DNA of 64,000 bases from Pseudomonadota bacterium (GTDB lineage: Bacteria > Myxococcota_A > Polyangia > Fen-1088), in contig JAEXQJ010000259.1 of NCBI GenBank assembly GCA_023438785.1, positions 4,816 to 68,815 of the forward strand, in the 5' to 3' direction. This document shows, piece after piece, positions 3,638 to 60,259 of this stretch. Position 1 is the stretch's first letter. Each line of letters starts with the position of its first letter. The notes beneath the pieces were generated by a model. That model saw only the letters and a list, made by a program, of their open reading frames with translations, ran no database searches and had not been told where the DNA came from. The position numbers were made by a program, and so were the translations under genes.

Positions 3638-4804
3638 CTACGGGATGAGCACGACGCGCTGACACCCATACACGAAGCTGATCTGCCCATCTCGCGAGGT
3701 GTTAACGCGTTCGCAGGTCTGGGGGCACAGCACGACCTTGGTGGGCTTGTCGGGGTTGTCGTAGTACCAACCCTTGCTGCCCGCCTTGTCGCAGTCGGCC
3801 TGTTTTACGCTCACCAGAGTCTCCTTGCTGGCGTAGTCCGTGAAGGTGACGTTCACCGCGTTGAAGTCCAAGTCGCCCTTCTCGGGCGGTGGAACCGTGT
3901 AATCGCACGTCAGGGTCTGGTTGCGGATGGCATCCAGGGCGGCGATGAACTGCTTGTCCACGTCCGCGGCCGTCGAGATGAGCGTGGCCTTCGCGGTGCC
4001 GCCCGCGACGGCGATGCTATCGAGCGCGGTCAATTCGCTGCCCACGCCGATAACGTAGACGGGGACCTTGGGCGCGCCCGCGTAGGCCTGGCCGCCAGCC
4101 ACGCGGCCCGCCGCCAACACGGCCTCTTCCAGCGAATTGGGCGGCGTGCTGCCGGCGCAGGTTCCGTCGGGAATGCCGTCCGTCGCCACCACGAGCACGG
4201 TGCGGTGATCGGGATGCGCCTGGGCCCACTCGGCCATGTACCTGCCCATGCCGTCCAGCGCCTGCACCAAGGGGGTGCCGCCGCTCATGCGCTGTCCGGC
4301 GAGCGACGCGCGCAAGGCATCGCCCACGCCGGGCAGCACGCCCATCTCCAGCGCGGGTTTGGTGTATCCCTCCTCGTCGCACGACAGCCGCAGGGGGAAG
4401 TACTGCAGGGCCATGGCCACGTTGGTATAGCGGGAACTCTGGGACACGATGCCCAGGGCGCCCGATACCTTGATCCACTTGTTCTCGTAGTCCATGGACG
4501 CCGACGTGTCGACGAGCAGGCCCAGGTCGAGCGGCGTGAGGTTCACCTTCTGCGTGCTGGTCGCGCACGTGTCCGCATCTCCAGGCGGTAGGCGATCTAC
4601 GGTCACAATGTCGGAGGTGGCGTCCCCCGGCATGTAGCTGATCGCGTCGCTCGTGCCGGCATCGTATTTTCCGTTCTGTCCTCCCGCGCCTCCCGTCCCG
4701 CTGCCACCGCCCTCTGGCGTTCTCTTCACGCCGCCACTGCCGCACGCGGGAATTGCCAGGGCCAGCGTTAACAGAGTGGTGCGTATGCTTCGATTGACCT
4801 TCAT
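3638..4804 (-). CDS. von Willebrand factor type A (VWA) domain lipoprotein
   Basis: ORF trimmed to ATG at 4804 (MKVNRSIRTTLLTLALAIPACGSGG). A MIDAS-like LVDTSASM motif precedes the VWA fold. GAGGA sits upstream. The gene is 8 bp downstream of the Cys-rich lipoprotein gene. Confidence 0.8.
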   Translation of the reverse strand: MKVNRSIRTTLLTLALAIPACGSGGVKRTPEGGGSGTGGAGGQNGKYDAGTSDAISYMPGDATSDIVTVDRLPPGDADTCATSTQKVNLTPLDLGLLVDTSASMDYENKWIKVSGALGIVSQSSRYTNVAMALQYFPLRLSCDEEGYTKPALEMGVLPGVGDALRASLAGQRMSGGTPLVQALDGMGRYMAEWAQAHPDHRTVLVVATDGIPDGTCAGSTPPNSLEEAVLAAGRVAGGQAYAGAPKVPVYVIGVGSELTALDSIAVAGGTAKATLISTAADVDKQFIAALDAIRNQTLTCDYTVPPPEKGDLDFNAVNVTFTDYASKETLVSVKQADCDKAGSKGWYYDNPDKPTKVVLCPQTCERVNTSRDGQISFVYGCQRVVLIP

Positions 4805-9999: not shown

Positions 10000-11187
10000 T
10001 TACTTCCGCTTGCGATTGCTCCGCTGATCGCTGCCGGTCCGCGCCTTGGGCGTGTCGTGGGGAAGGGTCTGCACGGCCTGTTTGCGCGCGCCTTGCTCCC
10101 CGCCGGTCGGGGGGGACGGCAGGCGGGCGAAGCTCTCGGTCAGCCCGATAGCGAATGCGTTGCGCAGAACGCCGACCAAGACTGGAAGGATTCGCTGATC
10201 GGGCTGGTCCAGGTTGGCGCGGATCAAAATCACATCGGCCGTGCCCTCGGCCTCCACCATGCGTTCCGAGGCTACGTCGACCGTCTGGTCCGTGACCCAC
10301 GTCTTCACCTGACCCACCCACGCGCTATCCGCCGGCCTCGCGTCCACGTCTTTGAGCAGGGGCCTGATCCCGCCGCGCAGCACGCCGTCCCTGCAGGTGA
10401 ACCCGACGCGCATGTCGAGAGCGCCCCGGGCGACCTGCAAATCGGCCTTGAACCCCACGAAGCCGTACAGGTCTGACAACTCCAGTCCCTGCAAGTGGCC
10501 GCGACCCGAGAAGGTGATGCCCTTGGCGGAGCGATCGACGACGACGAAGAGCGTGGCCGATCCGCTGCGCGCCACCTGGGCGCGCCCGGTCAACGTCGTG
10601 GAGGGTTGCTCTGCCCGGTCGGGGCGCTGGGCCAGGTTCGCCAGTACCAGATCCACGTCATGGATCCACAACTCGCCCGTGGCGCCGCGGCCCGGGTCCT
10701 CGTAGAGGAACTCACCGCCCTTGATGGCGACGCGATCCACGCTGACCAGTGGAAGCCGCTCGAGCAGGCGGAGCGGGCTGGCAACCTTCAGCGGCGCCTG
10801 GGGCAGGATCAGCTTGGGATCGTCGATGCGCAGCCACGCCACCAGCTTGCCGCGCAGCACATCGCGCATGTTGAAGCGAAAGTGTGCGTTCTCCAGGTAG
10901 AGCAGGGGACGTCGCCAATCACCCCCGGTGGGAACGAGCTTGAGGCGCCGGATTCGAAGGCCGGGCGGCAGCACCTGTACGTGCACGGACGCGAAGTCGC
11001 CCTCCAGAGCCCCGGAGCCCTTGAGGTACTTGCGCACGTAGTGCGCCGCTAGCGGGTCCAACACCAGGCGGACGCCGAAGACCACGGCGACGACGATGGA
11101 CAGACCGAGGACCAGCCGACTGAGCCAGCGCGAGCGAAACCAGCGGCTCCGATAGCCGCCTCTCGCATGCGCAGCCTCACCGGCCAT
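10000..11187 (-). CDS. DUF748-family protein with N-terminal TM anchor
   Basis: 395 aa with GGAGG upstream. The N-terminal helix is followed by a long beta-rich domain. Assigning DUF748 is from memory. Confidence 0.65.
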   Translation of the reverse strand: MAGEAAHARGGYRSRWFRSRWLSRLVLGLSIVVAVVFGVRLVLDPLAAHYVRKYLKGSGALEGDFASVHVQVLPPGLRIRRLKLVPTGGDWRRPLLYLENAHFRFNMRDVLRGKLVAWLRIDDPKLILPQAPLKVASPLRLLERLPLVSVDRVAIKGGEFLYEDPGRGATGELWIHDVDLVLANLAQRPDRAEQPSTTLTGRAQVARSGSATLFVVVDRSAKGITFSGRGHLQGLELSDLYGFVGFKADLQVARGALDMRVGFTCRDGVLRGGIRPLLKDVDARPADSAWVGQVKTWVTDQTVDVASERMVEAEGTADVILIRANLDQPDQRILPVLVGVLRNAFAIGLTESFARLPSPPTGGEQGARKQAVQTLPHDTPKARTGSDQRSNRKRK

Positions 11188-11440
11188 GATTCCACCTCCC
11201 TGCGCGCCCGTCGCTTCTGAGAGAACTCCCAGTCCTCGTGCCTCAAGGAGCGTGCCAGGGGCACGCGGCTCGGCCGCGGGCGCATCGGCGCGCCCAACGC
11301 GTCTGAGCCGTCACACGTCCGTAACACCGGGCTGTTCGCGTTACCAGATCGTGACCGGAACTGGCCCGGCGCACCGCCTTTATCGCAGACGTGCGATGGC
11401 ATGTGGCTTGAAACGCCGAGCCCACATGGGGGAACGAGCC

Positions 11441-11623
11441 ATGGAAAACGAAGAGACCGAGCAGAAGCTGGGGGAGGCGCAAGAAGCCGCCGACGAGGCT
11501 CGCCGGATGGCGGAGGACTGGAAGACCCGGGCCGCTGCGGCCATCCGAGAGAACCCACTGCCGTTCCTGGTAGGAGCATTCGCGGCTGGCTTCCTCATCG
11601 CGAGGGTGGCTCGTCATGTATGA
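11441..11623 (+). CDS. DUF883 (YqjD/ElaB-like) small protein, paralog 2
   Basis: Internal ATG of ORF 11186..11623. It reads MENEETEQKLGEAQEAADEARRMAEDW...ENPLPFLVGAFAAGFLIARV, matching the ElaB C-terminal pattern (NPW-x-VG-x-AAG-x-GFLLG). Confidence 0.5.
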   Translation: MENEETEQKLGEAQEAADEARRMAEDWKTRAAAAIRENPLPFLVGAFAAGFLIARVARHV

Positions 11624-11936
11624 GGGCAGCCTGGGCGACGCGGGCCAGACTCGCCACGAGGCTGAAGAGGCCTATTCGGAACTGCGCGATCTGGCGGCTC
11701 GCCTGCTCGCCGAGCTTCGGCGTGAAGCGGAGGACAACCCCCTGCGAACCGTCGCCATCGCCGCCGGCGCCGGCTTCGCGCTGGGCGGCGGCGTGTTCTC
11801 TTCTCTGACCGCGCGCGTGCTGGGCATCGGGCTGCGCGTGGTGTTGGGCGCGGCGGCGTTGCCCGCGGTGCTCCCCTTGGCCGCAGGCGGAATTTGGAAG
11901 TTGGTCAGGCTCCACCAACACGATTCGCAGGGCTGA
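11616..11936 (+). CDS. DUF883 (YqjD/ElaB-like) small protein, paralog 3
   Basis: It overlaps the previous gene by ATGTATGA. DNPLRTVAIAAGAGFALGGG is present. Confidence 0.55.
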   Translation: MYEGSLGDAGQTRHEAEEAYSELRDLAARLLAELRREAEDNPLRTVAIAAGAGFALGGGVFSSLTARVLGIGLRVVLGAAALPAVLPLAAGGIWKLVRLHQHDSQG

Positions 11937-11952
11937 AGGCGGGAGAACGAAG

Positions 11953-12276
11953 ATGAAAGCGACCTTATTCGTAATTGGTTTGGCCATCCTCATCGGCTGC
12001 AAATCGAGCAACAACAAGAGTGACGCCAGCGCCGCAGGCGGGAGCACGGCGACGGCCACGTCGAGCGGCACGGGCACCGGCGCCACGGCCACGGCAACCG
12101 GGACGGGCACGGGAACCGCTACCGCCGTGAAAGGCGACGCCGCCGCAGATATGGGCGCCCCCGCCGATGGAGGCATGAGCGAGGACGCGGGAGCCACGGG
12201 TGGGGTGGGTAAGAAGAGCCGCTCGGCGATGCGCTCTGAGCGGGTGCACAATGAAAAGCGCGTGGTGCACAGGTAG
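11953..12276 (+). CDS. Small lipoprotein with T/G/A-rich low-complexity region and basic C-terminus
   Basis: MKATLFVIGLAILIGCKSS lipobox. The signal region uses unusually AT-rich codons (tta ttc gta att ggt ttg) for this genome. GGGAGAACGAAG lies upstream. Confidence 0.45.
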   Translation: MKATLFVIGLAILIGCKSSNNKSDASAAGGSTATATSSGTGTGATATATGTGTGTATAVKGDAAADMGAPADGGMSEDAGATGGVGKKSRSAMRSERVHNEKRVVHR

Positions 12277-12438
12277 ACTGTCCGAAATGCCGGGGGGAAT
12301 AGGGTGAGGACAAGGCGAATGATGTCGGGCGAACGGCAGACGGTCGCGGATGGATCAAGCGACGGGAGTGAGCCGACGGTGTGCCGTGGTGGTTTTCCAC
12401 CGTCAGGATCAGCGAAGGGAACATCGGTGGGAGGGAGA

Positions 12439-49127: not shown

Positions 49128-49297
49128 GGCCGCCCCCGCCTTTCTGGCGATGGGCGTGGGCGAGGCGTGCGGGATCGCCGCGTGGGGACGTGGGCTCCTA
49201 AAGACTGCCATCCCATCCGACGAAGGCGTGACTGATGCTGCGGCCTAACCGTGAATTTGGGCCGAGCGCTGGCTCCCAGCGCCGCTCTGGAGAGTGC

Positions 49298-51622
49298 ATG
49301 GGTCCCGCCCGTCGCCATTCTCGGAGGTGGGCAAGCGCGTGGGCCCTGCTCGCGGGCTTCTGGGCCATCCGGCGGGCGGCGCGCGCCGACGGCCTCGGTG
49401 ATCTGGAGAGTCTGCTCAGCGAGCAAATCGTCACCTCGGCCTCCAAGCAGGCGGAGGGCGCAAGCTCGGCCCCCGCATTGTCCACCAGCCTCTCCGCCGA
49501 CGATTTGCGTCGCTACGGCGTCAAGACCCTGGCCGAGGCCATCGACTTCCTCACCGTCGGCGTGAAGACCTCCGGCAACCTCAACGGACGCGAGATCGGT
49601 GCTCGGGGTGTGTTGCTGACGGGTGACCGCGGCAGCCACTTCCTGCTGCTGGTGGATGGCCACGCCGTCAACGAGCCCCTGCGCGGCAGCGCCTGGCTCG
49701 GCGTTGGTGCGGGCGTTCCCATGGAGATAATCGACCACATCGAGGTGATTGTGGGCGCCGGCTCTGTGCTCTATGGGTCGAATGCCATGCTGGGCCTCAT
49801 CAATGTGGTCACCAAGCGGGCCAAGGACAACGCGGGCCTGCATCTAGTGGCCGAGTCTTCGGTCTGGACCAGCGCCCGTATGGGTGCGGGCTACACCCAC
49901 AAATTCTCGCTGTTCGGCAGCGAGGCAGAGATCACCGCTCACGGCGAGTACTACCGGCAATTCGGCCCGTACATGACCTTTGGCCCGGTCAATACCGGCG
50001 TGGAACCCGATACGGGCAGCCCAGGCCGCAACAGCCGCGATGCCCTGGGCACCGGCATTTGGGGCGGAACGCAGTCGGAGAACAGCCCCTTCGCCGAGGT
50101 CCCGGCGGGTATGCTTCGCGTCAGCGTGGGCGATGTGGAGCTGAACTACCGAGAGGTGCACTACACGCACTCTGCCCCGACCGGTGTGGGCAACTACGAC
50201 GATCCGGGAACCAAGCAGTGGGAAGTGCGGCGCTCCGCGGACCTCAAGTATCGCCACACGATGTCCGCCCTGCTTGACGTGTCGGCTCGCTTGTATGGCG
50301 ACTACTTCTCCTATCGCAACGACCTGCTCGCCTCCCGCTTCAGCCTGTGTCCCGTGTCCTCCGACGCCGGGGCGCCGACCTGCGACCTCCTCGACAAGGG
50401 CACCGCCATGTGGGCGGGCACGGAGCTTCAGACCTCGTGGGACTGGCTCAAGGACGCTCGCCTGGTCACCATGGCCGGTGTGGACGCGCGCTGGCGTTCC
50501 ATGAACACGAAGCACGATCGCCTCAACGTCACCACCGGCCTGTCGACGCTGCCAAGGACGCAGCAGATTCCAGGCATCGATAGGTCAGACATCACCGTCG
50601 GTGCCTATCTGCAGCAGACATGGACGCCCATGCCGAATCTGCGCTTCAACGGCGGCCTTCGTGTCGACCGCGACTCGCGCTTCGATCCTGTTTTGGTGAA
50701 GCGCTTGTCAGCGAACTGGGAGGCTTGGAAGAACGGTCAGCTGAAGCTGGCCTACGCCGAGGCGTTTCGCGCGCCGAGTTGGGATGAGTCGGATGACTCC
50801 GCCGCCGATCGCATCGCGGCCAATGCGGCATCGAGGCCCAACGTCGACACGCGCGGCGTGAACCTGGGGACGCCGCTGAAGCCCGAGACGGTCAAGTCTA
50901 TCGAGGGCAGCATTCAGCAGAAGCTCGGAGCCCATCGCTTCCTCGTGGGCGGCTTCTACTCGCGCTGGAACAACCTGGTTCACCTGCGCCAGCTCAGCGC
51001 CGCTGAAACAAACACGGCCCGCAGCAACGGCCTGACCGCTCCCCTCGCAAACGGCGTGCTCCTGACGCAATACCAGAACGTCAGCACCATCGACAATTAC
51101 GGGCTCAACGTGGGGATAGATGGCGCGGTGGGATTCGATGCCCTGCAATACGGTCTGAGCGCCACGCTCGCCGAGGCCAGGGTCAAGACGCCGGACGCGC
51201 CAGGTGCGACCACCGTGACGGCAGGAGCCCAGCGCAACGGCAATATTGCCCCCGCCGTCTTCGGCAACGCCCGTATCGCCTACATCCCCGGGGGCATGTG
51301 GCCCACCATCGCCCTGGCCGCCCAATTCATGGGCAAACAATCACCGGACCAGTACCTAGTCCTGGAGGACGGCACGAGCCTGGAGCCTCGCGTGCCTGCC
51401 CAGGTGGAGGGACGTTTGACGCTTTCGGGTGCCGTCCCGGCGGTTAAGCACCTGAGCTATCGCGTGATTGCCAACTACGCCTTGGCCGACCAGGGCCCCT
51501 ATGTGGTGGGCCCGGTCATGGTCGCGAGGAGCTCGGCCCTCTATACGTTCGACCAGACTCCGCCGCGCCTCATCCCCGTCGATCGCTTTCGAGTCACGTG
51601 CGGTTTGCAGGTGGATTTCTAG
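49298..51622 (+). CDS. TonB-dependent receptor (plug plus beta-barrel, C-terminal Phe)
   Basis: Internal ATG at 49298 with GGAGAG upstream. Plug motif IDHIEVIVGAGSVLYGSNAMLGLINVVTK and terminal ...CGLQVDF. Confidence 0.85.
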   Translation: MGPARRHSRRWASAWALLAGFWAIRRAARADGLGDLESLLSEQIVTSASKQAEGASSAPALSTSLSADDLRRYGVKTLAEAIDFLTVGVKTSGNLNGREIGARGVLLTGDRGSHFLLLVDGHAVNEPLRGSAWLGVGAGVPMEIIDHIEVIVGAGSVLYGSNAMLGLINVVTKRAKDNAGLHLVAESSVWTSARMGAGYTHKFSLFGSEAEITAHGEYYRQFGPYMTFGPVNTGVEPDTGSPGRNSRDALGTGIWGGTQSENSPFAEVPAGMLRVSVGDVELNYREVHYTHSAPTGVGNYDDPGTKQWEVRRSADLKYRHTMSALLDVSARLYGDYFSYRNDLLASRFSLCPVSSDAGAPTCDLLDKGTAMWAGTELQTSWDWLKDARLVTMAGVDARWRSMNTKHDRLNVTTGLSTLPRTQQIPGIDRSDITVGAYLQQTWTPMPNLRFNGGLRVDRDSRFDPVLVKRLSANWEAWKNGQLKLAYAEAFRAPSWDESDDSAADRIAANAASRPNVDTRGVNLGTPLKPETVKSIEGSIQQKLGAHRFLVGGFYSRWNNLVHLRQLSAAETNTARSNGLTAPLANGVLLTQYQNVSTIDNYGLNVGIDGAVGFDALQYGLSATLAEARVKTPDAPGATTVTAGAQRNGNIAPAVFGNARIAYIPGGMWPTIALAAQFMGKQSPDQYLVLEDGTSLEPRVPAQVEGRLTLSGAVPAVKHLSYRVIANYALADQGPYVVGPVMVARSSALYTFDQTPPRLIPVDRFRVTCGLQVDF

Positions 51623-51644: not shown

Positions 51645-52304
51645 ATGAACCAGAAATCGACACCAGCGACGGCGCAACAAGGCGTGCCTGCCTCTTCCGG
51701 CAGCGCCGGCCGGCTGGTGTGGCCGCACAGGGCCAACCCATGGCTCGTCTGTGCCATGGTCTGGCTCTGCCTGTGTCTGTGCGGAGTGCGACAGGTGCGC
51801 GCCGACGACGTTGCCGTGCCCATTCCCATGCAGGTCCAGCTCCTCGCCAGCGTGGCCGACTACGACAAGGCGTTCGCCGAGCGTGCCAAGGGCAGCGTGA
51901 AGATTGTCCTGCTGACCTCCAAGGACCCCGACAGTGCCCGTGCGGCGGCGCAGGTCCGGGTCGCCCTACGGGGTGTCTCACAGATCGCCGGCTTGCCGCA
52001 CGAAGAGTCGATCGTGCAATTCGAGTCCGCGGCCGCGCTGAGGGATCTGTGCCGCAGCAAGGGCGTCGGTGTCGTCTTCGTCATGCCTGGCTTCCAGAAA
52101 GAGGTCGCCGACATCAAGCGCAGCTTGGATGGCGTGAGTGTGCTCTCGGTCGCCACCGTCGGGGCCTACGTCCAAGAGGGCGTGGTGCTGGGATTCGACG
52201 TCATCTCCGGCAAGCCCAAGTTGCTCGTGAACCTGCCGCAGGCCCGAGCCCAGAAGGTCGCCTTCAAGGCCGAGTTGCTGAAGATGGTGAAGGTCATCGA
52301 ATAG
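51645..52304 (+). CDS. YfiR-like (DUF4154) periplasmic protein
   Basis: Internal ATG at 51645 with GAGGGG upstream. Signal peptide present. The C-terminus KLLVNLPQARAQKVAFKAELLKMVKVIE resembles the YfiR-family C-terminal pattern. Assignment from memory. Confidence 0.45.
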   Translation: MNQKSTPATAQQGVPASSGSAGRLVWPHRANPWLVCAMVWLCLCLCGVRQVRADDVAVPIPMQVQLLASVADYDKAFAERAKGSVKIVLLTSKDPDSARAAAQVRVALRGVSQIAGLPHEESIVQFESAAALRDLCRSKGVGVVFVMPGFQKEVADIKRSLDGVSVLSVATVGAYVQEGVVLGFDVISGKPKLLVNLPQARAQKVAFKAELLKMVKVIE

Positions 52305-52357: not shown

Positions 52358-52882
52358 ATGAATACCGATGACGAGCTCGCACAGGTCAATACGGAGCTAA
52401 GGGGTGTCTGCCAGGACATGTTCCCGGGCATCCAATGTGAACTCGGAATCGACGTGCCCGAGAAACCGGCGTCGCAGATGACCATTCTGGCCACGCTCGG
52501 CCTCAGCTCGGAAAATGTGCGCGGCGCCCTCGTGGTGTTCGGGCCGCCCGAGTTCTTTCGGGCCACGTACCCACTTGCCGGACCACGGGAGAGCGACGTC
52601 CGGGATTGGGCCGGCGAAGTCGCCAACCAGACCTTGGGGCGTCTCAACAACCGATTCGCGCGGCGGGGCTGCATCTTCTCCCACGGCATACCCGCGATTG
52701 TCTCCGGCGATGCCCTCCAACTCGCGCTCGGCGAAAATCGCCGCCGCGCCACCCTGCGTGGCCGGCTGGGGGCCCACGAGGTCGTGATGGTGTTGGACGT
52801 CCAACGCACCGACGGCACGGCTCTCTTCCATCCGGGTGAAAGGTCCGAGACGGTGAGCGAAGGAGAAGGGATTCTCTTCTAG
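52358..52882 (+). CDS. cheX: CheX/CheC-type CheY-P phosphatase
   Basis: DWAGEVANQTLGRLNNRFARRGCIFSHGIP matches D/S-x3-E-x2-N-x22-P exactly (D..E..N then P at +22). 174 aa with GAAGGA RBS. Confidence 0.75.
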   Translation: MNTDDELAQVNTELRGVCQDMFPGIQCELGIDVPEKPASQMTILATLGLSSENVRGALVVFGPPEFFRATYPLAGPRESDVRDWAGEVANQTLGRLNNRFARRGCIFSHGIPAIVSGDALQLALGENRRRATLRGRLGAHEVVMVLDVQRTDGTALFHPGERSETVSEGEGILF

Positions 52883-52910: not shown

Positions 52911-53282
52911 ATGGCACACAAGATCCTGCTCGTGGACGACTCAAGGACGGTTCGCCAACAGGTCGCCGCGGCCCTGACCGAGGCGGGATTCGCTGTCGTT
53001 GAGGCGGGAGATGGCGGCGAGGCCCTGGATCAGCTCGCCAAGAACGGCGATGTCCGGATGGTTGTCTGTGACGTCACGATGCCACGTATGTCCGGTCTGG
53101 AATTCCTGGCGGCCATGAAGGACCAGGGACGCATGGGGAGTCCGCCGGTCATCATGCTGACCACCGAGGGCAAGAGCGAAGTCATCGAGAAGGCCAAGGC
53201 ATTGGGTGTGCGTGGCTGGGTGGTGAAGCCCGTCCAGGCCGCGCAGCTCGTCGCCGCCGCCAAGAAGCTGACCGACGGCTGA
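52911..53282 (+). CDS. Single-domain CheY-like response regulator
   Basis: ILLVDDS...DVTMPRMSG...VVKP. AGAGGAAG RBS. Confidence 0.9.
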   Translation: MAHKILLVDDSRTVRQQVAAALTEAGFAVVEAGDGGEALDQLAKNGDVRMVVCDVTMPRMSGLEFLAAMKDQGRMGSPPVIMLTTEGKSEVIEKAKALGVRGWVVKPVQAAQLVAAAKKLTDG

Positions 53283-53294
53283 GGCGCGTGCCGC

Positions 53295-54317
53295 TCAGAA
53301 CGCCTCGGGAAGGTAGCTCGCGGCGTTGGTCGCGTCGAAGGTGCGGTCGTTGTTTTTCATCACCGTGGGGATCTGCTCACCCTGGGCGTACTTGAGGATG
53401 GTGTCGAAGACCACGGGGCCGAACTTGGGGTTGCACTCAGTCAGCTCGGAGATCTTGCCCTCGATGACGTACTGGGTGGCCTTCAGCGTCCCGTCTATCG
53501 ACAGCAGCATGATGTCTCTGCCGGGCTCCTTCCCCAGTTGCTGCAGGGCCGTGATGATGCCGAAAGACATACCGTCGTTGTGCGAAAAGATGACGTCGGC
53601 CGTCGGGTATTGGGGGAGGACCTCGAGGAGCAGGTCGTGCGCCTTCTGCTCGTCGAAGTCGGCGTCCTGCGAGAAGAGCAGCTTCATGCCAGGCTGGCCC
53701 GCGATTCTGCCGTCGAAGCCTTGCTTTCGTCCCACGGCGGCCGAGGAACCGACCGTGCCCTCGAATTCGATGATGTTGGCGTGGCCGCCGGTCTTTTGGA
53801 TGAGCCAGTCAGCCGTCAGCTCGCCCTCCTTGACGAAGTCCGAGCCGATGTAAGTCACGTAGTCGAGCCCGGGCACGGCGATGTTGGTGTCGACGGCGCG
53901 GTCCTCGATGAACACCGGGATGCAGGCCTTGCGCGCGGCCACGACGGTCGGAGCGAGATTGGCCTCGTCGTGGGGGGCTAGCAGGATGACGTCGACTTTG
54001 GCGTCGATGAGGGCCTGCATGCGGTCCACCTGTTCGGCGGCGTCGGCGGTGGTTCCTGGGGTGTAGACCAACTCCCAACCGCGCCTGGCGGCCTCGTCGA
54101 CGATGCTCTTCGTGTTGGCGTCACGCCAGGGGCCGTTGGCCTCGTAGAGCTGTGCGAATCCGACCCGGTACGTGTCTTTGAGGGCCAGGGGCGGCAGGCT
54201 GGTGCAGGTCTGGCCTTGGGCCGCGGAGTCGCTCGCGTCATTGCTGCTGCTGCAGGCCGAAAGGGTGGTGGCCACCGCGATTCCACCGATGGTCAGCCAT
54301 CTTTGCAGTTGCGTCAT
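53295..54317 (-). CDS. Periplasmic-binding-protein type I (sugar-binding/LacI-like fold) lipoprotein, orphan (no ABC permease or ATPase nearby)
   Basis: ORF trimmed to ATG at 54317 (MTQLQRWLTIGGIAVATTLSACSS lipobox). It is divergent from the CheA-like kinase gene. Confidence 0.8.
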   Translation of the reverse strand: MTQLQRWLTIGGIAVATTLSACSSSNDASDSAAQGQTCTSLPPLALKDTYRVGFAQLYEANGPWRDANTKSIVDEAARRGWELVYTPGTTADAAEQVDRMQALIDAKVDVILLAPHDEANLAPTVVAARKACIPVFIEDRAVDTNIAVPGLDYVTYIGSDFVKEGELTADWLIQKTGGHANIIEFEGTVGSSAAVGRKQGFDGRIAGQPGMKLLFSQDADFDEQKAHDLLLEVLPQYPTADVIFSHNDGMSFGIITALQQLGKEPGRDIMLLSIDGTLKATQYVIEGKISELTECNPKFGPVVFDTILKYAQGEQIPTVMKNNDRTFDATNAASYLPEAF

Positions 54318-54419
54318 GTTCGTGGGCCTTCGCTGCAGTTGCACCCTTCTGAGCGCCGACGTTCGGCGCGGGATGTCGCCTGCGCCGGGGCGAACTGACG
54401 TGAACCACTGCGCAGTCTT

Positions 54420-54436
54420 GCCTCCCGGGGGGAGGC
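54420..54436. promoter_or_regulatory. Palindrome GCCTCCC-GGGG-GGAGGC in the SBP/kinase divergent intergenic region
   Basis: Seen directly in the sequence. A second palindrome CGCCGA-CGT-TCGGCG lies about 60 nt upstream. Confidence 0.25.
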
Positions 54437-54534
54437 TTCGTCACCTCGGGCCCACAGCTTTAGCGCACGTGTGAACGAGTGAGGTCGGCTTCAGATTCAG
54501 GCGGGACAGCCGAACTGGGGACGAGGGCAAAGCC

Positions 54535-57500
54535 GTGCCGAAGCAAGAGAGAAGACGACGGTTCCTCTCGGTGGGGACCAAGCTGGCCGTCGCCACGGTT
54601 GCCGTGATGGCCACGGCGTCGTTCTTGCTCTTCAGGGAATTGACCGAGCGCGAGCGCAGGCGACTCGTCGATGCGAAGGCGGTTGCCGGCTCGATGGTGA
54701 CCGAGCTTTTCGCCGCGTCCTGTGCCGCCCCTTTGGTGTTCGCGGACGACGATGCGGTGGCGGTCGAATTGGAGAAGCTGCGCAGCAATGGGGCCATCGT
54801 CTATGCCGCCGTCTACTCGAGCAAGGAAGACAAGACGGTCAGGGAGCTCAATCCCGAGAAGAGACCTTCGTACGACTTCAAGCATGGCAAGACGGCGAGT
54901 CGCCTGCTCGAGTACGCGGACAGGATCGAGCTGGTGAAGGACATCCGAGACACCCGCGGGAAGGTGGTGGGATTCGCGGCGTTGAACTTCTCGCTGGCCG
55001 ACGAGAATGCCGCCTTCCGGGTCAGCCGCCGTCGGTTGCTGTGGTTCGCGTTCCTCATCGCCGGGGGCACGGCGGGGCTGCTCATCATGCTGACGCGCAG
55101 GGTGATCGTGGCTCCGCTGGCGCGGGTCACCGAGGCCGCTCGCCGCCTTGAGCAAGGCGACTTGCACGCGCGTGCTGACGTGAAATCAAGCGACGAGGTG
55201 GGGAACCTGGCGCTCGTCTTCAACAGCATGGGCGACGCCATCGTGGATCGTGAACAGAAGCTCGTTCAGGCGCGAAAGAACCTGCAGGACCTCTTCGACA
55301 ACATGCTGCAGGCCATCTTCACGGTTGGCCCAGATGGCCGCATCGATGCGGAGGTGTCTGCTTACGCCAAGCAGATCTTCGGCGACGTGCCGATCGCCGG
55401 CCAATCCGTGGTCGAGTTCTTGCGCCTCGAATCCATGGCCGAAAAGGAGGTGGTCAGCCGCATGAAGTTCTGGCTGCAGCACATCTTCGGCGCCGACGAT
55501 TTTCAGTGGGAGCTCTCCGAGCCGGAGCGAATCCGCGGGCTGAACTACACGCGCACGAACGCGGATGGCGTGGCCGACGAGCGCGTGCTGGAGCTGGACT
55601 ACGCGCCCCTCTACAAGGACGGGGAAATAGTGAAGATCATGTTCTTGGTGAAGGACGTGACCGAGGTGCATCGCCTGCAGGCCGAGATCGCCCGTCGCGA
55701 GGAGCAGAACAAGGAGAATCTGGCTCGCATTCGGCAGATCGCGGCCATGGAGCCCGATCTGTTCAACACGTTCATCGCGGAGGCCAAGATCGTGCTCGAC
55801 GGGTGCGAGGAGGCGCTCGCCGATTTGGAGGAGCCCAGCCGACGGCAGGCTGCCGTGAACTCGTTGTTCCGCGGCATGCACACGCTCAAGGGAAATGCGC
55901 GCATGTTCAAGCTCACGGCGGTGCAGGATATCGCGCACGCCACGGAGGACTACTTCCAGCGGGTGCGAGACGGTGAGGTGGGGCTCGGCCCCGAAATCGG
56001 GCTGGCCATGCACGAGCGCATCGCGGACGTGCGAAAGTTGCTGGGCGAGTTCGAGAAGCTTGGACGGCAGGTCCTGGGCGGGGAGCAGGAGAGCCCGGGC
56101 GAAGCCGCCTTGTCCTTCCTGCGCGCCCAGGAGCGGCCCTTCGACGATGGGCAGAGCGATCTGGCTTCGCTGGGCGACCCGGACGGCGACAAGCCGGCGC
56201 GCGCGCGCCTGGTGGCAAGGGCGACCCAACTGCGGGCCGAGGCGCAGGGCCACGGCTTCGTCAACGTGACCGCGGCCTTCGACTCGGTCCTCCAGGTCCT
56301 GGGTCGCGCCGAGACCACGGCGCTGGACCTGGTGCCCTGCCTGCACGAGGTGAACCAGGCTCTGCAGCTCACCCGTTCACTGTCTGCAGAAGTGGCGACG
56401 GCCGAGCTTTGGCCGTACTTCCGCGACGAGGCCCGGGCGACCTTGCGTGCCCTGGCCGCCAAGCTCAGCGCAGGGGGAGACCGAGCCCGCGAGGCCCTCG
56501 ATGTGTTCTTGCTGGCCGCAGGGGCGCGGTCCTTTGGCCTGGCCACCCTGGCCAACGTGGCGTCGGATTACCATCGGGCCATGACGGAGGACGGTGTGGA
56601 TGGGCGCACCGTCCTGAACGCCCTCGAGTCGTGGGTGGTCGATGGGCACAACCTGGTGGAGATGAGGTCGAAGCCCGAAGCGGACGTGGACGTGCTGGGC
56701 CGCTTCCATGGCGAGGCGGAAGACCTGGTGGAGCGGCTCAACGGGGCGAGCGCCAGTCAGGTCCCGCTGCTGCTCCTGGCGGCCATCGCCTGCGCTCGTC
56801 GGTACCGCTTCCGGGTGGCCCAAGCCGTCCTCGAATCCCTGGCCCAAACTGGGCCCAAGGACGGTGGCGTGGTGGCCGAGGCTTTGCGTCGCGAAGTGCT
56901 TGCCTACGAGGCCATTCGGCGCGAGATGCGCGACAACGAGGCGGCGGAGCACCTGCTGCTCGTGCCGCCTGGCGAGGACGACGAAAGGGAGCTGGCGAAT
57001 TGGTGGGAGGCGGCCGGGCAGGCTGGCCTCAATACGCTGCTGGCTCGCGCGCGCTCGCTGGCCGAGCCGGCTCGTCGGCATCTGCTCGACGACGTTCGTC
57101 ACTTCCGCGTGTTGATGCCGGCCATGCGCGGCGCAAAGACCGGGCAGCCGATCCAGCGGGTGCTCGAAGGCCGTATCGCCGCCCTCCGCGACGCTCTGAG
57201 AGGACTGCGCCAAGCCGTGGCGCACGTGCGGGAGGATCGGCAGGCCATCTTGCCGCCGCTCAACGATCTGGAGAAGGCGGTGGTTCATCTCACCACATCA
57301 TCCCTCGGTGACGTGCTGGCCCCGGTGGCCTCCACGGCGGCCGATCTGGCGCGCGAGCGCGGCAAGCCCCTCGAAGAGGTCAGTCTGGAGAACCTGGACT
57401 TCTTCTTGGAGGCCAGGGCGATGCAGAAGGTTCGGGGCGCGGTCATGCATGCCGTGCGGAACGCGGTCGATCACGGCCTGGAAACCGCCGATGCGCGTGT

Positions 57501-57921
57501 GAGCTCGGGCAAGGCCCCGCGTGGCCGCATCTCCATCAGCGCGCGGGAGCGCGACGGGTGGATCGACTTGACGGTCGAGGACGACGGCCGCGGTGTGGAC
57601 ACGGCTCGCGTGAAGCAAGTCGCTCTCAAACGCGGTCTCATCACGGCTGAGCAGGCGGCGGCGTTGTCCACTGAGGAAGCCCACGAGCTCCTTTTCCTGC
57701 CCGGATTCTCGACCGCGGCCACCGTGTCTTCCGTGTCCGGCCGGGGCGTGGGCATGGATGCCATCCGGGCCATCGCCCGCGATCTGGGCGGCGACGCCAG
57801 ACTGGCCTCCGCGCCAGGGCGGGGCAGTCGGCTCACCATGCACTTCCCCGTCCGGTTCGCGGCGGAGTCGGTCAGACCCGGCAAGGTCGCGCTGGGCAGC
57901 AGCGCACATTTGCCGAACTGA
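54535..57921 (+). CDS. Membrane-bound CheA-class histidine kinase: TM, periplasmic domain (about 140 aa), TM, HAMP, PAS, Hpt, CheA-type ATP-binding core; no CheW-like P5 domain
   Basis: GTG start with GAGGG upstream. HAMP (EQGDLHARADVKSSDEVGNLALVFNSM), Hpt His (RGMHTLKGNARMF), CheA N-box (VMHAVRNAVDHGLE) and G2 box (SGRGVGMDAI) are present. The protein ends right after the HATPase domain. Confidence 0.85.
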   Translation: MPKQERRRRFLSVGTKLAVATVAVMATASFLLFRELTERERRRLVDAKAVAGSMVTELFAASCAAPLVFADDDAVAVELEKLRSNGAIVYAAVYSSKEDKTVRELNPEKRPSYDFKHGKTASRLLEYADRIELVKDIRDTRGKVVGFAALNFSLADENAAFRVSRRRLLWFAFLIAGGTAGLLIMLTRRVIVAPLARVTEAARRLEQGDLHARADVKSSDEVGNLALVFNSMGDAIVDREQKLVQARKNLQDLFDNMLQAIFTVGPDGRIDAEVSAYAKQIFGDVPIAGQSVVEFLRLESMAEKEVVSRMKFWLQHIFGADDFQWELSEPERIRGLNYTRTNADGVADERVLELDYAPLYKDGEIVKIMFLVKDVTEVHRLQAEIARREEQNKENLARIRQIAAMEPDLFNTFIAEAKIVLDGCEEALADLEEPSRRQAAVNSLFRGMHTLKGNARMFKLTAVQDIAHATEDYFQRVRDGEVGLGPEIGLAMHERIADVRKLLGEFEKLGRQVLGGEQESPGEAALSFLRAQERPFDDGQSDLASLGDPDGDKPARARLVARATQLRAEAQGHGFVNVTAAFDSVLQVLGRAETTALDLVPCLHEVNQALQLTRSLSAEVATAELWPYFRDEARATLRALAAKLSAGGDRAREALDVFLLAAGARSFGLATLANVASDYHRAMTEDGVDGRTVLNALESWVVDGHNLVEMRSKPEADVDVLGRFHGEAEDLVERLNGASASQVPLLLLAAIACARRYRFRVAQAVLESLAQTGPKDGGVVAEALRREVLAYEAIRREMRDNEAAEHLLLVPPGEDDERELANWWEAAGQAGLNTLLARARSLAEPARRHLLDDVRHFRVLMPAMRGAKTGQPIQRVLEGRIAALRDALRGLRQAVAHVREDRQAILPPLNDLEKAVVHLTTSSLGDVLAPVASTAADLARERGKPLEEVSLENLDFFLEARAMQKVRGAVMHAVRNAVDHGLETADARVSSGKAPRGRISISARERDGWIDLTVEDDGRGVDTARVKQVALKRGLITAEQAAALSTEEAHELLFLPGFSTAATVSSVSGRGVGMDAIRAIARDLGGDARLASAPGRGSRLTMHFPVRFAAESVRPGKVALGSSAHLPN

Positions 57922-57968: not shown

Positions 57969-59018
57969 CTACCAGCCGGCGTCGAGGAGCAGCGAACCTG
58001 CGCCGAAGGGATAGCCCCACGTCGCGGCCTCGTTGCCGGCGAAGCGGACGACCAAGCGGCCGAACGATGCTCCTGCGGCGAGCCGCAGCGTAAGTCTCAG
58101 CCAGCGCGTGAAGGCCAGACCCGTATCGAAACGGGCGTATCCGATCCCCATGGTGGTCGAGTCAGGAAATGCGGTCACCAGGGGCGGGGTGGCTTTGCCC
58201 TCGACACCGATATGCAGAATCCCGCCGCCCAGTCCGGCCGTGAGCGAGAGCCGCGATTCCGGCGCGCCCCAGCGTCGCAGCAGAACCAGGGCCGCCAGGG
58301 AGGGTCTCAGGCTCGCCGAGCCCTCGGGCCCGGAGGGCTTCATGCCCCGGATGGGGGCAGCCAGATCCAGGGCCACGCCCATGCGATGTCCCACCATTTG
58401 CAGTGACAGCCACATTTCCAGCGCGGCGCCCGCGCCTCCCGGGCTGGCGAGGAATCCCGCCCCGGTCTGCACACGCGCGCACCACGTACACGGCTCGCCC
58501 CTGGAACCGATCAGTTCGGGCGGCAGCGCAGGTTGCGGCGCGGCGGAGGGCGCCGAGGATGCGGCCGGGTGTGGGTCGACGAGCAGGCTGGTGCGCAGCA
58601 ACTCGACGAGCTGCATGGCCACCAGGTTCTCGTCAGGACCCTCGGGGCTCTCGTCGACGATGAGTTGGCGCAACAGCGAGCGCCCCGAGGTCTCGTCGGC
58701 CATCCAGATCTCCACCCCGCGTCGGGACGGAACCAGCCGAATCGCCGCCGCGGCACGCTGCTCGCGCGCTGCCGTCTCCATCTGCTCAGGGCGTTCGGGC
58801 TCTCGCCAGGCTTGCAGGACGACGATCTTGAGTCCCATGCCCTCAATCTCGGCGCGCAGCCGATCGGCGAAGGGATCAGCCGCGCGGTCGAGGATGAACA
58901 GCACCTGCTTGGCCGGTCGCGCGTCGCCCTCTGCGGCAGCGCTGTCCGCCGGGCGGCCCGCCAGCAGGAACTGCGCTGCCAGGAGTCCGGCAAAGGCGGC
59001 CAGGACGCGACGGGGCAT
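57969..59018 (-). CDS. Secreted two-domain protein, likely small outer-membrane beta-barrel (C-terminal Trp)
   Basis: Signal peptide MPRRVLAAFAGLLAAQFLLAG. The C-terminal 170 aa show an alternating hydrophobic beta pattern ending ...LLLDAGW. Its start overlaps the anti-sigma stop (TGATG). Confidence 0.55.
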   Translation of the reverse strand: MPRRVLAAFAGLLAAQFLLAGRPADSAAAEGDARPAKQVLFILDRAADPFADRLRAEIEGMGLKIVVLQAWREPERPEQMETAAREQRAAAAIRLVPSRRGVEIWMADETSGRSLLRQLIVDESPEGPDENLVAMQLVELLRTSLLVDPHPAASSAPSAAPQPALPPELIGSRGEPCTWCARVQTGAGFLASPGGAGAALEMWLSLQMVGHRMGVALDLAAPIRGMKPSGPEGSASLRPSLAALVLLRRWGAPESRLSLTAGLGGGILHIGVEGKATPPLVTAFPDSTTMGIGYARFDTGLAFTRWLRLTLRLAAGASFGRLVVRFAGNEAATWGYPFGAGSLLLDAGW

Positions 59019-60259
59019 CAGTCTTCAGTGAGGATCGAGCGCGCTTCGCGGGCGTACGGACCTTCCGGGAAACGGCGCAGGTAGCGCTCGGCGTCCGCGC
59101 GCGCACCTCGCCTGTCGCCGGCGTAGCGACGGGATTCCATCAGTCGCCCCACTGCATCTCCCATGAGGGCTCCGCTTGGCTGCTCATCGAGGTAGGTAGA
59201 AAACCAACGTACAGCCTCATCATACCCGCCGCGCCTTTCGAAGGCGATACGGCCCAGCGCGAAGGCGGCATTGGAGGCGTCCGCCGTGTGGGCAAAACGC
59301 GAGCGCAGGACGCGCAAAGCGGTGGTCGCCCTTTGGGTGCGGCCCGAGAGCCGGGCGGCGTCGGAGATCTGGAGCAATTCCCTCGGGCTCGCGGCCTGGC
59401 ACACCCGATCGAACCCCGCGCTTTCGGCGGCGCGCAAGCCCTCATTCAGGCGGCCACTGCCCAGCAGGGCGCGCCAGTTGGCCGCCGACCCGGCTTCACG
59501 GCCGAGGCGCGCCGGCTCTCCCACGCTCGGGGCCTCCCCGGGCTGTGCCGGGGCAACCGGGAGCACGCTGGCTTGAGGCTGGGGGATGGCAGTGGGGGAC
59601 TCGGGACAGGACATCTGCAAGGCCTGACCGGCGGCCAGACTGCGCGGCTCCGGCATGCAGCGGCCAGACACCACGACCGAGCCCTCGCGCATCGATACGG
59701 AGAGCGTCTGGGTAGAGGCATTCCAGCCCGCGCGGAACTTCGTGCCGGTGACGAGGACCTGGAAGGGCCCCAATTCGAACTGCCAGTTGGTCCTGCGGAC
59801 CTTGCGATGCACGATGGCGACGTCCACGGAGCCTGATTCGACCAGAACCCGCGCACCGCTGGCCTGCGCGGCGAGCACGCGCATGCGGCTACCCTCGCGC
59901 AATACGATCGAACTGCCCTCCGAGAAGTTGAGGGCCAGCGGGGCATCGCTCATCGCTTCGATGACGTCGCCGGTGCGCCCCGCCGTGGCCGCCCCGCCCA
60001 CCTGGAAGGTCACCGGCGCGCGCAGGATCAGGGCGAGCGCACCCACGCCCAGGGCCACACCCAAGCCCGGCAGGAGCCAACCGAGCCTCAATGACCTGAG
60101 GAAGCGGGGCCGCTCCATTCGCTTTTCATTGCGGAGCGCGACCTGCTCCAGGAGCCGGCGGCGAGCCGTGCGTATCTGCTCGTTCCCGTCGAGTTCCATC
60201 GACAGCGCGTCGCGGATGGTCCTCCCGACGTCGGTTAACTGTTCTTGAGAAGGCTCCAT
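59018..60259 (-). CDS. Anti-sigma factor (FecR-domain, single TM, C-terminal TPR-like)
   Basis: N-terminal cytoplasmic anti-sigma region, a TM segment (LGWLLPGLGVALGVGALALIL) and a FecR-like beta domain (LNFSEGSSIVLREGSRMRV...VLVESGSVDVAIV). Confidence 0.75.
   Translation of the reverse strand: MEPSQEQLTDVGRTIRDALSMELDGNEQIRTARRRLLEQVALRNEKRMERPRFLRSLRLGWLLPGLGVALGVGALALILRAPVTFQVGGAATAGRTGDVIEAMSDAPLALNFSEGSSIVLREGSRMRVLAAQASGARVLVESGSVDVAIVHRKVRRTNWQFELGPFQVLVTGTKFRAGWNASTQTLSVSMREGSVVVSGRCMPEPRSLAAGQALQMSCPESPTAIPQPQASVLPVAPAQPGEAPSVGEPARLGREAGSAANWRALLGSGRLNEGLRAAESAGFDRVCQAASPRELLQISDAARLSGRTQRATTALRVLRSRFAHTADASNAAFALGRIAFERRGGYDEAVRWFSTYLDEQPSGALMGDAVGRLMESRRYAGDRRGARADAERYLRRFPEGPYAREARSILTED

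Follow-up and report, generated by a model that had tools for sequence, protein, structure and literature searches.

Sensor kinases that depend on a separate binding protein form a small group, with a handful of cases known, in which a protein of the periplasmic binding protein (PBP) type gives a membrane kinase its ligand specificity (PMC8050422). The pairs LuxP-LuxQ, XylFII-LytS, TorT-TorS, ChvE-VirA and CBP-ChiS resemble the locus described here in that the binding-protein gene stands by the kinase gene and not by a transporter; the Peripla_BP_4 domain is present in LuxP, XylFII and ChvE, and PAS-like domains are present in the LuxQ sensor (PMC8050422). A second likeness is with the YfiBNR (TpbB) system of Pseudomonas aeruginosa, where the gene for a DUF4154 protein, YfiR, neighbours that for an inner-membrane enzyme carrying HAMP and, on its periplasmic side, a PAS-like domain, and where a lipoprotein and a component of the outer membrane are also involved, the outer-membrane lipoprotein sequestering YfiR (PMC4655355). 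The PAS/Cache-like fold is the class to which LuxQ, LapD and YfiN belong, all of which bind periplasmic partner proteins (PMC4655355; PMC8050422). A three-gene logic is also represented in NCBIfam by the triad NF053590/NF053591/NF053592, which comprises the TOL_0244 TonB-dependent receptor, the TOL_0243 YfiR-like protein and a YfiR-like-associated sensor histidine kinase and, judged by the names of its models, has no sugar-binding protein. Control of the YfiR type is known mainly from c-di-GMP cyclases. A further parallel is offered by BT1754, a hybrid two-component sensor of Bacteroides (2x7x), in which a periplasmic PBP type I domain reads a monosaccharide and controls the kinase, and whose locus also encodes a SusC-type importer that depends on TonB.

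Within the 64-kb window (the whole stretch of DNA that was analysed), a gene at 53295..54317 on the reverse strand encodes a GafA/YtfQ-like PBP type I sugar-binding lipoprotein of 340 aa, here called the substrate-binding protein (SBP). We consider it likely that this protein is an ABC-derived, furanose-type binding protein that has been recruited as the ligand reader of a conserved, envelope-spanning sensory module. The core of this module has four parts: a TonB-dependent receptor in the outer membrane, a YfiR-like protein in the periplasm, the SBP, and an inner-membrane sensor with a PAS/Cache-like domain. The open reading frame of the SBP begins at a GTG (53295..54344, reverse strand), and the start consistent with the orthologues is the ATG at 54317. 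The N-terminus (MTQLQRWLTIGGIAVATTLSAC) has the features of a bacterial lipoprotein, namely a signal peptide followed by a lipobox of the form [LVI][ASTG][GA]C, in this case LSAC at residues 19-22, and the lipid-bearing Cys22 is invariant among the 57 clade members aligned. The match to Pfam Peripla_BP_4 (PF13407) lies well above the cutoff (8e-40; 137.4 bits against 35.1), and the AF2 model (pLDDT 88.7) shows a two-lobed alpha/beta fold of PBP type I. The earlier note had described a PBP-I fold lipoprotein of the sugar-binding type, and these three lines of evidence confirm it. In Foldseek searches the top solved matches of the model were 6hbd, 2vk2 and RbsB, that is, furanose (Galf/Araf) and ribose binding proteins, with TM-scores of 0.75-0.89 to sugar SBPs; the model also resembles the BT1754 structure 2x7x (E 9e-23). 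The score against the YtfQ equivalog model NF041827 was 158.2 bits, below its cutoff of 510.

The likeness to the furanose ABC transporters GafABCD and YtfQRT-YjfF (2vk2, 6hbd, 5ocp) extends to the fold and to those site residues that could be mapped in a partial check of the GafA/YtfQ site (PMC10191376), and in structural alignments the SBP is 29-34% identical to solved GafA proteins. The pocket residues of the SBP are W64, R65, D139, R140, R197, D220, F221, N247, D248 and D275. In the GafA account, the site is described as a Trp/Phe sandwich with an Asp-Arg salt-bridge pair, and sugar selectivity is said to hinge on subtle changes in geometry (PMC10191376). The canonical pocket residues, including the Asp-Arg pair and the Trp/Phe sandwich, are invariant across the alignment of the SBP clade to which this protein belongs (the module clade); among the residues that could be placed against that account these are W64, R65, D139, R140 and F221, with D139 aligning with Asp105 of GafAMs. 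Judged from these conserved residues, the ligand is probably an arabinofuranose- or galactofuranose-like monosaccharide. Compared with the GafABCD and YtfQRT-YjfF systems, the SBP has no transporter genes, carries a lipid anchor and an extra Cys pair, and is changed at residues 116/117, 99 and 277. The same positions (Cys22, the pair Cys38 and Cys132, H116 and D117, R99, and T277) distinguish the module clade from its closest relatives that are linked to ABC transporters; the lipid Cys is present in every module-clade member aligned and mostly missing from this ABC-linked sister clade. T89 and an N-terminal segment with LPPL and Cys38 are likewise specific to the module clade, and Cys38 and Cys132 may form a disulfide.

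The 65 loci whose SBP is about 51% or more identical to this one make up a single clade, the module clade. The database search gave over 370 homologues of the SBP, the best 120 all being 58-100% identical, and the named records among the homologues are uncultured Myxococcales or deltaproteobacterial MAGs; the clade spans dozens of soil-bacterial lineages. In a neighbour-joining tree it is monophyletic (52 loci and five short contigs), and the ABC-linked clade is separate (12 and three). This sister clade is made up of relatives at 46-51% identity that are found in LacI-SBP-ATPase-permease operons, with the CUT2 genes immediately downstream of the SBP gene. When its Pfam-verified ATPase and permease proteins were used as tblastn queries, no CUT2 ATPase or permease was matched in the 64-kb window at E<=1e-3, which bears out the earlier observation that such genes are missing from the neighbourhood. 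Moreover, no CUT2 ATPase or permease gene was present beside any module-clade SBP in the 65 loci, within the available DNA of up to 10 kb on each side. An ABC transporter as the partner would have spoken against a sensory role, and no module-clade member is accompanied by one, the ABC linkage being found in the sister clade. The automatic annotation of module-clade SBPs as ‘sugar/ribose ABC transporter substrate-binding protein’ is thus probably misleading.

Nevertheless, a role in transport deserves consideration. The SBP might pass cargo of the receptor to an ABC transporter that is encoded elsewhere, and the kinase system might regulate uptake or be co-regulated with it. The usual partners of TonB-dependent receptors are an inner-membrane transporter and a binding protein in the periplasm, and known SBPs with a dual use, ChvE, RbsB and MalE among them, work for transporters as well. 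The ancestors of the SBP and its sister clade are transporter subunits, the pocket is unchanged, and the portion of the genome that is visible amounts to 64 kb. This scenario is nonetheless improbable in view of the lack of CUT2 genes near any of the 65 loci, when the sister clade has both immediately downstream, and of the fact that the SBP tracks the sensor even where the output domain of the sensor changes.

The association of the SBP with its neighbours is very regular. At least one module gene was found in all 55 clade loci with at least 500 bp of flank, and each of the 17 loci with 4 kb or more on each side had all three of receptor, YfiR-like protein and sensor; when the loci were clustered at 90% identity, all 32 clusters with 1 kb or more of flank were positive, and precomputed Pfam contexts agree. 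The same gene set is kept through at least seven gene orders and orientations in 43 sequence clusters. The SBP gene stands on the opposite strand, between the CheY-like and kinase genes, and could on that account be viewed as an unrelated insertion between two halves of an operon, but the recurrence of the set across these loci, arrangements and clusters effectively refutes a chance neighbourhood. The earlier note had suggested that co-conservation of the SBP and kinase genes be checked, and the sensor gene proved to be co-conserved with the SBP in every informative locus. The notion of a pair needs amendment, however: the co-conservation stands, and the two genes are really part of a four-gene core that includes the receptor and the YfiR-like protein. 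The locus thus shows the pattern of the SBP-dependent kinase systems, an SBP gene that is linked to and co-conserved with a sensor gene, with no cognate transporter nearby. The functional partnership of SBP and kinase is well supported, because the two are co-conserved in the informative loci and no member of the clade is accompanied by an ABC transporter.

More distant relatives place this association in an evolutionary context. One spirochaete locus encodes an SBP 36% identical to the one here, with a LytS/YesM-type kinase gene directly after it and then an AraC-type regulator, an arrangement familiar from the XylFII-LytS paradigm. Another locus (L129) has a distant triad of TonB-dependent receptor, YfiR-like protein and kinase with no SBP within 22 kb, so the SBP is not obligatory for sensors of this kind. 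As distant kinase relatives at two other loci (L128 and L130) also occur without the module, the SBP looks like a lineage-specific addition. A protein of 1476 aa from yet another locus (P0137, L127), which joins a PBP domain to the kinase core, was considered as a Rosetta-stone fusion and rejected, being retained as an analogy only. Its identity to the kinase is 42% across residues 247-1105 of the latter. The PBP domain is LacI-type, was not significantly similar to the SBP in blastp (E>1), and is probably cytoplasmic, as no N-terminal signal peptide or hydrophobic segment was seen.

The kinase gene (54535..57921, forward strand; 1128 aa) starts with a GTG that is conserved in the orthologues. 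Its product is laid out as a first transmembrane segment, a periplasmic PAS/Cache-like domain, a second transmembrane segment, HAMP, a PAS-like region, Hpt, some 460 aa without a Pfam match, and HATPase_c. The hydrophobic segments lie at residues ~13-35 and 167-190, and the Pfam domains at residues 187-237 (HAMP, 50.5 bits), 409-500 (Hpt, 47.3 bits) and 969-1106 (HATPase_c, 61.6 bits). His449 of the Hpt domain is found in HTLKG, which fits the CheA-type HxxKG. NCBIfam CheA models match the C-terminus, NF041336 covering residues 912-1112, with scores far under the cutoff (203 against 950), and neither a CheW-like P5 domain (PF01584) nor an H-kinase_dim P3 domain (PF02895) was matched by Pfam. 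The label CheA-like, under which the divergent kinase had originally been described, is fair in view of the Hpt, HATPase_c and CheA model matches, although the CheW-like domain was not detected.

Residues 36-175 of the kinase (54640..55059, forward strand) make up its periplasmic sensor domain, which has a single PAS/PDC (Cache-like) fold and in sequence is weakly like CHASE8/YfiN and the sensor domain of NF053592. The Pfam CHASE8 score was 19.7 (cutoff 27) and that of the YfiN model 28.6 (cutoff 325); CHASE8 is present in the precomputed annotation of four homologues, and a search with the kinase N-terminus alone returned two matches only. The homologous periplasmic domain is fused to three outputs: a long CheA-like kinase, a short CheA-like kinase, and a PP2C phosphatase. 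Since one sensor domain joins three different outputs, the conserved unit appears to be the periplasmic assembly. One way for such an assembly to work would be for the liganded SBP to bind the PAS-like domain of the kinase, as in LuxP-LuxQ, TorT-TorS, XylFII-LytS and ChvE-VirA, with the YfiR-like protein and the receptor acting as separate inputs. Such direct docking is a serious possibility, to which we give somewhat less than even weight: in four of the gene orders (B, C, E and G) it is the gene for the receptor or the YfiR-like protein, and not that for the kinase, which the SBP gene adjoins, and by homology YfiR is the known partner of this type of sensor. PAS/Cache domains also often bind small ligands directly, as in CitA and DcuS, which counts against a sensor that is read through the SBP.

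The SBP gene is directly adjoined by four cluster genes on the strand of the kinase, of which the earlier note makes no mention; besides the receptor and the YfiR-like protein, they encode one protein like CheX and one like CheY. The TonB-dependent receptor (49235..51622, forward strand; 795 aa) combines a Plug with a beta-barrel domain, contains the TonB-box-like EQIVTSA and ends in Phe, and Pfam matched no STN signalling domain in it. The YfiR-like periplasmic protein (DUF4154; 51645..52304, forward strand; 219 aa) scores above the cutoff of Pfam PF13689 (38.3 bits against 24.9), and on reading its sequence has one Cys only after the predicted signal peptide. The CheX-like protein (52358..52882, forward strand; 174 aa) is a weak match (Pfam CheX 21.4 bits, cutoff 27), and homologues of it occur in many module loci. 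The CheY-like protein (52911..53282, forward strand; 123 aa) is a single-domain response regulator (Pfam Response_reg 9e-26; top NCBIfam match CheY, 81.7 bits) that retains D10, D11, D54, T84 and K106. All three of the receptor, the YfiR-like protein and the kinase match their counterpart models in the NCBIfam triad, the receptor with this model as its best hit, the YfiR-like protein with it as the only hit, and the kinase with it ranked third, at scores far below the cutoffs (83.5 against 645, 23.6 against 125, and 59.1 against 194, respectively). The locus differs from the triad in its SBP and in its CheA-like kinase.

The YfiBNR precedent makes the YfiR-like protein a likely binder of the sensor domain (PMC4655355), and a wiring from SBP to YfiR-like protein to kinase could therefore apply; by analogy, the YfiR-like protein is as plausible a contact for the SBP as the kinase itself. 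In its strict form this alternative holds that the sugar-loaded SBP sequesters a YfiR-like inhibitor and so relieves the sensor, the kinase never being contacted by the SBP. In its favour, the cluster encodes a PAS-like sensor with HAMP alongside a DUF4154 protein, all clade members aligned have the SBP as a lipoprotein when most of the ABC-linked sister clade lacks the lipid Cys, the SBP gene adjoins that of the YfiR-like protein in many gene orders, and no YfiB-like gene was found among the cluster genes scanned. Yet the YfiR-like protein is a remote DUF4154 member for which phmmer gave no match to the solved YfiR, and we know of no precedent for a PBP-I protein that binds YfiR. We consider this form of the scheme rather doubtful. 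The locus departs from YfiBNR in its output, which is a CheA-like kinase or a PP2C phosphatase and not a GGDEF cyclase (the cluster genes scanned contained neither a GGDEF nor an OmpA-like domain), in having a TonB-dependent receptor and a sugar-binding lipoprotein in place of YfiB, and in the strong divergence of the YfiR-like protein.

The SBP and kinase genes are divergent, and the region between them (54318..54534) is exactly 217 bp long and contains two perfect 7-bp inverted repeats with 3-nt loops, at 54353-54369 (GCGCCGAcgtTCGGCGC) and 54420-54436 (GCCTCCCgggGGGAGGC), so that both the length and the two palindromes claimed for it in the earlier note are correct. The pair is mildly unusual, as two or more such hairpins also occur in about 2% of shuffled sequences and in 1.7% of the 217-bp tiles of the window. 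In the orthologous loci the first repeat is semi-conserved in position, unlike the second, which shows no conservation. Another conserved element, TTCAGATTC at 54492-54500, lies upstream of the kinase start. With about 2% of controls alike and one repeat alone conserved in position, the palindromes were rejected as a strong regulatory signal and are kept as a lead only.

Returning to the SBP as ligand reader of the module, it is most likely the sugar-reading part of a four-part envelope sensor, because it is always beside the receptor, the YfiR-like protein and the kinase. The observations cover the gene content, the folds, the conserved pocket, the structure of the clade and its co-conservation; for the ligand, the protein-protein contacts, the direction of regulation and the cellular output we infer the following course. 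A sugar or glycan fragment would enter the periplasm through the TonB-dependent receptor, and the SBP would close on a monosaccharide, probably of the arabinofuranose or galactofuranose kind. The liganded SBP would then alter the activity of the sensor, whether through docking on its PAS-like domain, in the manner of LuxP, TorT and XylFII, or by titrating the YfiR-like inhibitor. The kinase would autophosphorylate on His449 of its Hpt domain and pass the phosphate to the CheY-like receiver, which the CheX-like protein may reset. In comparison with systems of the LuxPQ type, the kinase is CheA-like, with Hpt and HATPase_c and no HisKA, the SBP is a lipoprotein, a YfiR-like protein and a TonB-dependent receptor belong to the conserved unit, and the sensor domain may have a PP2C phosphatase as its output in place of the kinase. 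BT1754 differs in that its PBP domain and kinase form one fusion protein, where the SBP described here is a lipoprotein of its own; moreover, the kinase class differs and BT1754 has no YfiR-like protein.

In our search of the literature on DUF4154/YfiR-like proteins, TonB-dependent receptors, histidine kinases and CHASE8, no account was found of such a module, in which SBP sensing, control of the YfiR type and a TonB-dependent receptor appear as one conserved unit. A more speculative proposal, which we hold to be unlikely as it stands, is that of a new kind of trans-envelope relay, in which the receptor gates a furanose signal and the sugar-loaded lipoprotein, as a substitute for YfiB, captures the YfiR-like inhibitor and so switches the kinase or the PP2C phosphatase. 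If true, such a relay would join outer-membrane import of the nutrient type, sensing by an SBP and YfiR-type inhibition in one pathway. For the evolution of the family, the clade offers the case of a transporter subunit that was exapted into signalling, with a clean contrast to the sister clade and a short list of clade-specific residues. As for the organisms themselves, soil predators or degraders may use a Che-like phosphorelay to keep track of furanose sugars that are released from the walls of plants, fungi or bacteria.

The ORF of the sugar-binding lipoprotein (SBP) occupies 53295..54344 on the reverse strand of the window (G+C ~68%), the most plausible start being the ATG at 54317, in agreement with the N-termini of orthologues. 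The 340-aa product carries a signal peptide and the lipobox LSAC, belongs to the Peripla_BP_4 family (Pfam, 8e-40), and yields a confident AF2 model (pLDDT 88.7) whose best matches among solved structures are MSMEG_1712 (6hbd, Galf/Araf-binding, 34% identity), YtfQ (2vk2), ribose-binding proteins, and the fructose-sensing domain of BT1754. The lipoprotein with a PBP-I fold described in the earlier note is thus borne out. The SBP scores below the YtfQ equivalog cutoff and lacks a transporter operon; tblastn with Pfam-verified CUT2 proteins detected neither ATPase nor permease genes in the 64-kb window, in keeping with what had been said of its neighbourhood.

Directly past the 3' end of the SBP gene are four further genes, absent from the earlier note, that lie on the forward strand with the kinase. 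They encode a TonB-dependent receptor (49235-51622; Pfam and NCBIfam matches), a DUF4154/YfiR-like protein (51645-52304; Pfam 38.3 bits, above the cutoff), a CheX-like protein (52358-52882; a weak match), and a CheY-like receiver (52911-53282) with every catalytic residue there. Three curated NCBIfam models that name one conserved triad are matched here, albeit remotely and with scores far under the cutoffs: NF053590 (TOL_0244 receptor) by the receptor, NF053591 (TOL_0243 YfiR-like protein) by the YfiR-like protein, and NF053592 (YfiR-like-associated kinase) by the N-terminus of the kinase. The locus is therefore a remote relative of the recognised receptor/YfiR-like/sensor triad and carries the SBP gene as an insertion on the other strand. 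Immediately downstream of the kinase gene, two reverse-strand genes (57969-60259) encode a FecR-domain/TPR protein and a 349-aa protein that matches no family and whose N-terminus is hydrophobic; because tblastn matched neither at E<=1e-6 in any locus (0/126), both probably fall outside the module of receptor, YfiR-like protein, SBP, and sensor.

Co-conservation was assessed from precomputed contexts and by tblastn on 126 fetched loci. The database holds more than 370 SBP homologues, the best 120 all being 58-100% identical; few carry names, and the named records are Myxococcales or deltaproteobacterial MAGs. There are 65 loci with an SBP at least ~51% identical to that of the window (the module clade). 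Of the receptor, the YfiR-like protein, and the sensor, one or more turned up in all 55 that have 500 bp or more of flank, and the full set in each of the 17 loci flanked by 4 kb or more on each side. Clustering at 90% identity left 43 clusters, and all 32 of those whose flank reaches 1 kb or more were positive. The gene set is kept across at least seven arrangements or orientations, the divergent SBP-kinase layout recurring in L005-L007, L074, L079, and L093. Genes of the CheY-like, CheX-like (two paralogue types), and SpoIIE/PP2C kinds are frequent companions but not constant ones. The earlier note, which viewed the SBP as an orphan and a candidate co-sensor that may dock on the kinase, held that partner ABC genes or a pair that is not co-conserved would speak against this view; neither was encountered in the module clade, where the pair is co-conserved in every informative locus.

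SBPs of 46-51% identity reside in LacI | SBP-ATPase-permease(s) operons (Pfam, tblastn). The NJ tree recovers the module-linked SBPs (52 plus 5 short contigs) as monophyletic, with the ABC-linked SBPs (12 plus 3) in a separate clade. A third small clade of orphan SBPs (L103, L104, and L108-L110), the sister of the module clade, also has the Cys38 and Cys132 pair; the sole member examined (L110:5542-6546) lies beside GH95-like and malectin-domain genes for glycan degradation, with neither ABC nor module genes nearby.

Ten positions (W64, R65, D139, R140, R197, D220, F221, N247, D248, and D275), which correspond to the sugar contacts of RbsB and GafA given what we take to be the RbsB numbering, show no variation in either the module or the ABC clade. 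SBP D139 corresponds in the alignment to Asp105 of GafAMs and R65 to the Arg in the GafA Asp-Arg pair, which together with a Trp/Phe sandwich is the furanose determinant in GafA (PMC10191376). A furanose-type monosaccharide is our best guess for the ligand, subject to the warning that selectivity of the GafA type hangs on subtle geometry (PMC10191376). This shared pocket would suit an SBP serving purely for transport, its transporter being unlinked; such a role seems quite improbable. Other residues separate the clades: the lipid Cys22 marks the module clade, the site being mostly Ser in the ABC clade; Cys38 and Cys132, invariant in the former, are Phe and Gly in the latter, and probably form a disulfide pinning the N-terminal linker; and H116/D117, R99, and T277 stand against R/E, D, and E. 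The module-specific residues are candidates for a surface that meets a new partner.

Across from the SBP, the CheA-like kinase (54535-57921) was correctly recognised, with two hydrophobic segments (~13-35 and 167-190), HAMP, Hpt, and HATPase_c domains, and CheA-like similarity at the C-terminus. The Hpt and ATP-binding domains are separated by some 460 residues (~501-968; window 56035-57438) with no Pfam match, a stretch missing from short-form kinases of ~730 aa. Comparison of the sensor domain, which has a PAS/Cache-like fold, gave values of 13.0 for the WalK extracellular domain, 12.4 for the periplasmic domain of a Legionella LapD orthologue, 11.6 for CitA, 9.3 and 8.7 for LuxQ, and 6.9 for LapD. 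In LapD-LapG this fold binds a partner protein; CitA and DcuS use it to bind small ligands directly. Protein partners are likewise bound in LuxQ-LuxP (PMC8050422) and YfiN-YfiR (PMC4655355), and CHASE8, the YfiN sensor family of the Cache-like clan (PMC8846402), matches the kinase below threshold and is precomputed for several homologues. Since the fold binds proteins in some systems and small ligands in others, it permits docking of the SBP on the kinase without singling that model out, and we regard direct docking as a real possibility, at somewhat less than even chances.

Three protein types share the sensor's periplasmic domain over its full length: CheA-like kinases in a long and a short (~730 aa) form, and ~480-aa sensor-PP2C proteins. 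The last are encoded directly after the SBP gene (L075:1368-2807, L102:770-2218, and L087:2713-3852) and combine the sensor domain with a SpoIIE/PP2C (SiaA-like) phosphatase in the kinase's place; for a ~480-aa protein in the same position at L003:11492-12925, the PP2C part only was confirmed. It is the periplasmic assembly that is conserved; the cytoplasmic output can be exchanged.

The two genes diverge across exactly 217 bp, the length previously claimed. Both 7-bp GC palindromes noted in this region are present, but their standing as a notable signal is weakened by the occurrence of a similar pair in ~2% of controls. The first, GCGCCGAcgtTCGGCGC (54353-54369, ~36-52 nt upstream of the SBP start), is semi-conserved in position, as CCGCCGAAnGTCGGCG, in L005, L006, L074, and L079; the second lacks positional conservation in orthologous loci. 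A TTCAGATTC motif (54492-54500, 35-43 nt upstream of the kinase GTG) is kept in four orthologous loci, and it and the GCGCCGAcgtTCGGCGC repeat are candidate operator or promoter elements.

Fourteen long-form kinase orthologues share 60-77% identity, and the SBP gene adjoins the kinase in all those with DNA examined (L005, L006, L074, L093, and partial L079). On the contig of homologue P0133, a truncated convergent gene after the module may be the SBP; there, the module's CheX-like and CheY-like genes come after a response-regulator-GGDEF gene (1319-3760). At L129:6800-15300, YfiR-like and TonB-dependent receptor genes stand in duplicate around a distant short-form kinase, all of them broken up by frameshifts, which could reflect an assembly artefact or a decaying locus, and no SBP lies within 22 kb; the distant kinase relatives at L128 and L130 lack the module. 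With such relatives lacking SBP or module, the SBP seems to have joined an older triad in a lineage-specific way.

Homologue P0137 (L127:7370-11800; 1476 aa) joins a LacI-type sugar-binding domain to the same PAS-Hpt-HATPase core (42% identity), has no evident signal peptide or membrane segment, and is encoded divergently from a GH5 cellulase gene; it appears to be a form of the kinase that senses sugar in the cytoplasm. As a Rosetta stone for the SBP-kinase pair it was rejected, its PBP part being related to the SBP in fold class only, an analogy. Of the spirochaete loci (L008-L040), the one examined, L010:9872-13944, encodes an SBP 36% identical to that of the window, followed directly by a HAMP-His_kinase (LytS/YesM-type) and an AraC-type response regulator, the three-component layout of XylFII-LytS, with a CUT2 ABC transporter ~5 kb away. 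In Hymenobacter (L041-L046, ~10000-12300), a PBP-like segment ~30% identical to the SBP precedes a receiver-domain match by ~1.3 kb on the same strand and may belong to an HTCS-like hybrid sensor with a fused PBP domain.

In its proposed working the window system resembles both the SBP-dependent sensor kinases (PMC8050422) and YfiBNR (PMC4655355), but it is a member of neither: its kinase is CheA-like without a CheW-like domain, and it has neither YfiB nor the GGDEF output of YfiBNR. That the SBP titrates the YfiR-like protein, as a putative inhibitor, in the manner of YfiB we consider unlikely. No description of a module of receptor, YfiR-like protein, SBP, and CheA-like kinase was found in the literature searched. 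The best-supported reading is that the module is an envelope-spanning sensor: the receptor would let in a sugar or glycan fragment, the SBP would read it and sensor activity would then shift, Hpt His449 would be phosphorylated and pass its phosphate to the CheY-like receiver, and the CheX-like protein would reset that receiver. PP2C phosphatases at several loci, and the GGDEF response regulator at one (the P0133 contig), hint at partner-switching or c-di-GMP outputs in some lineages.
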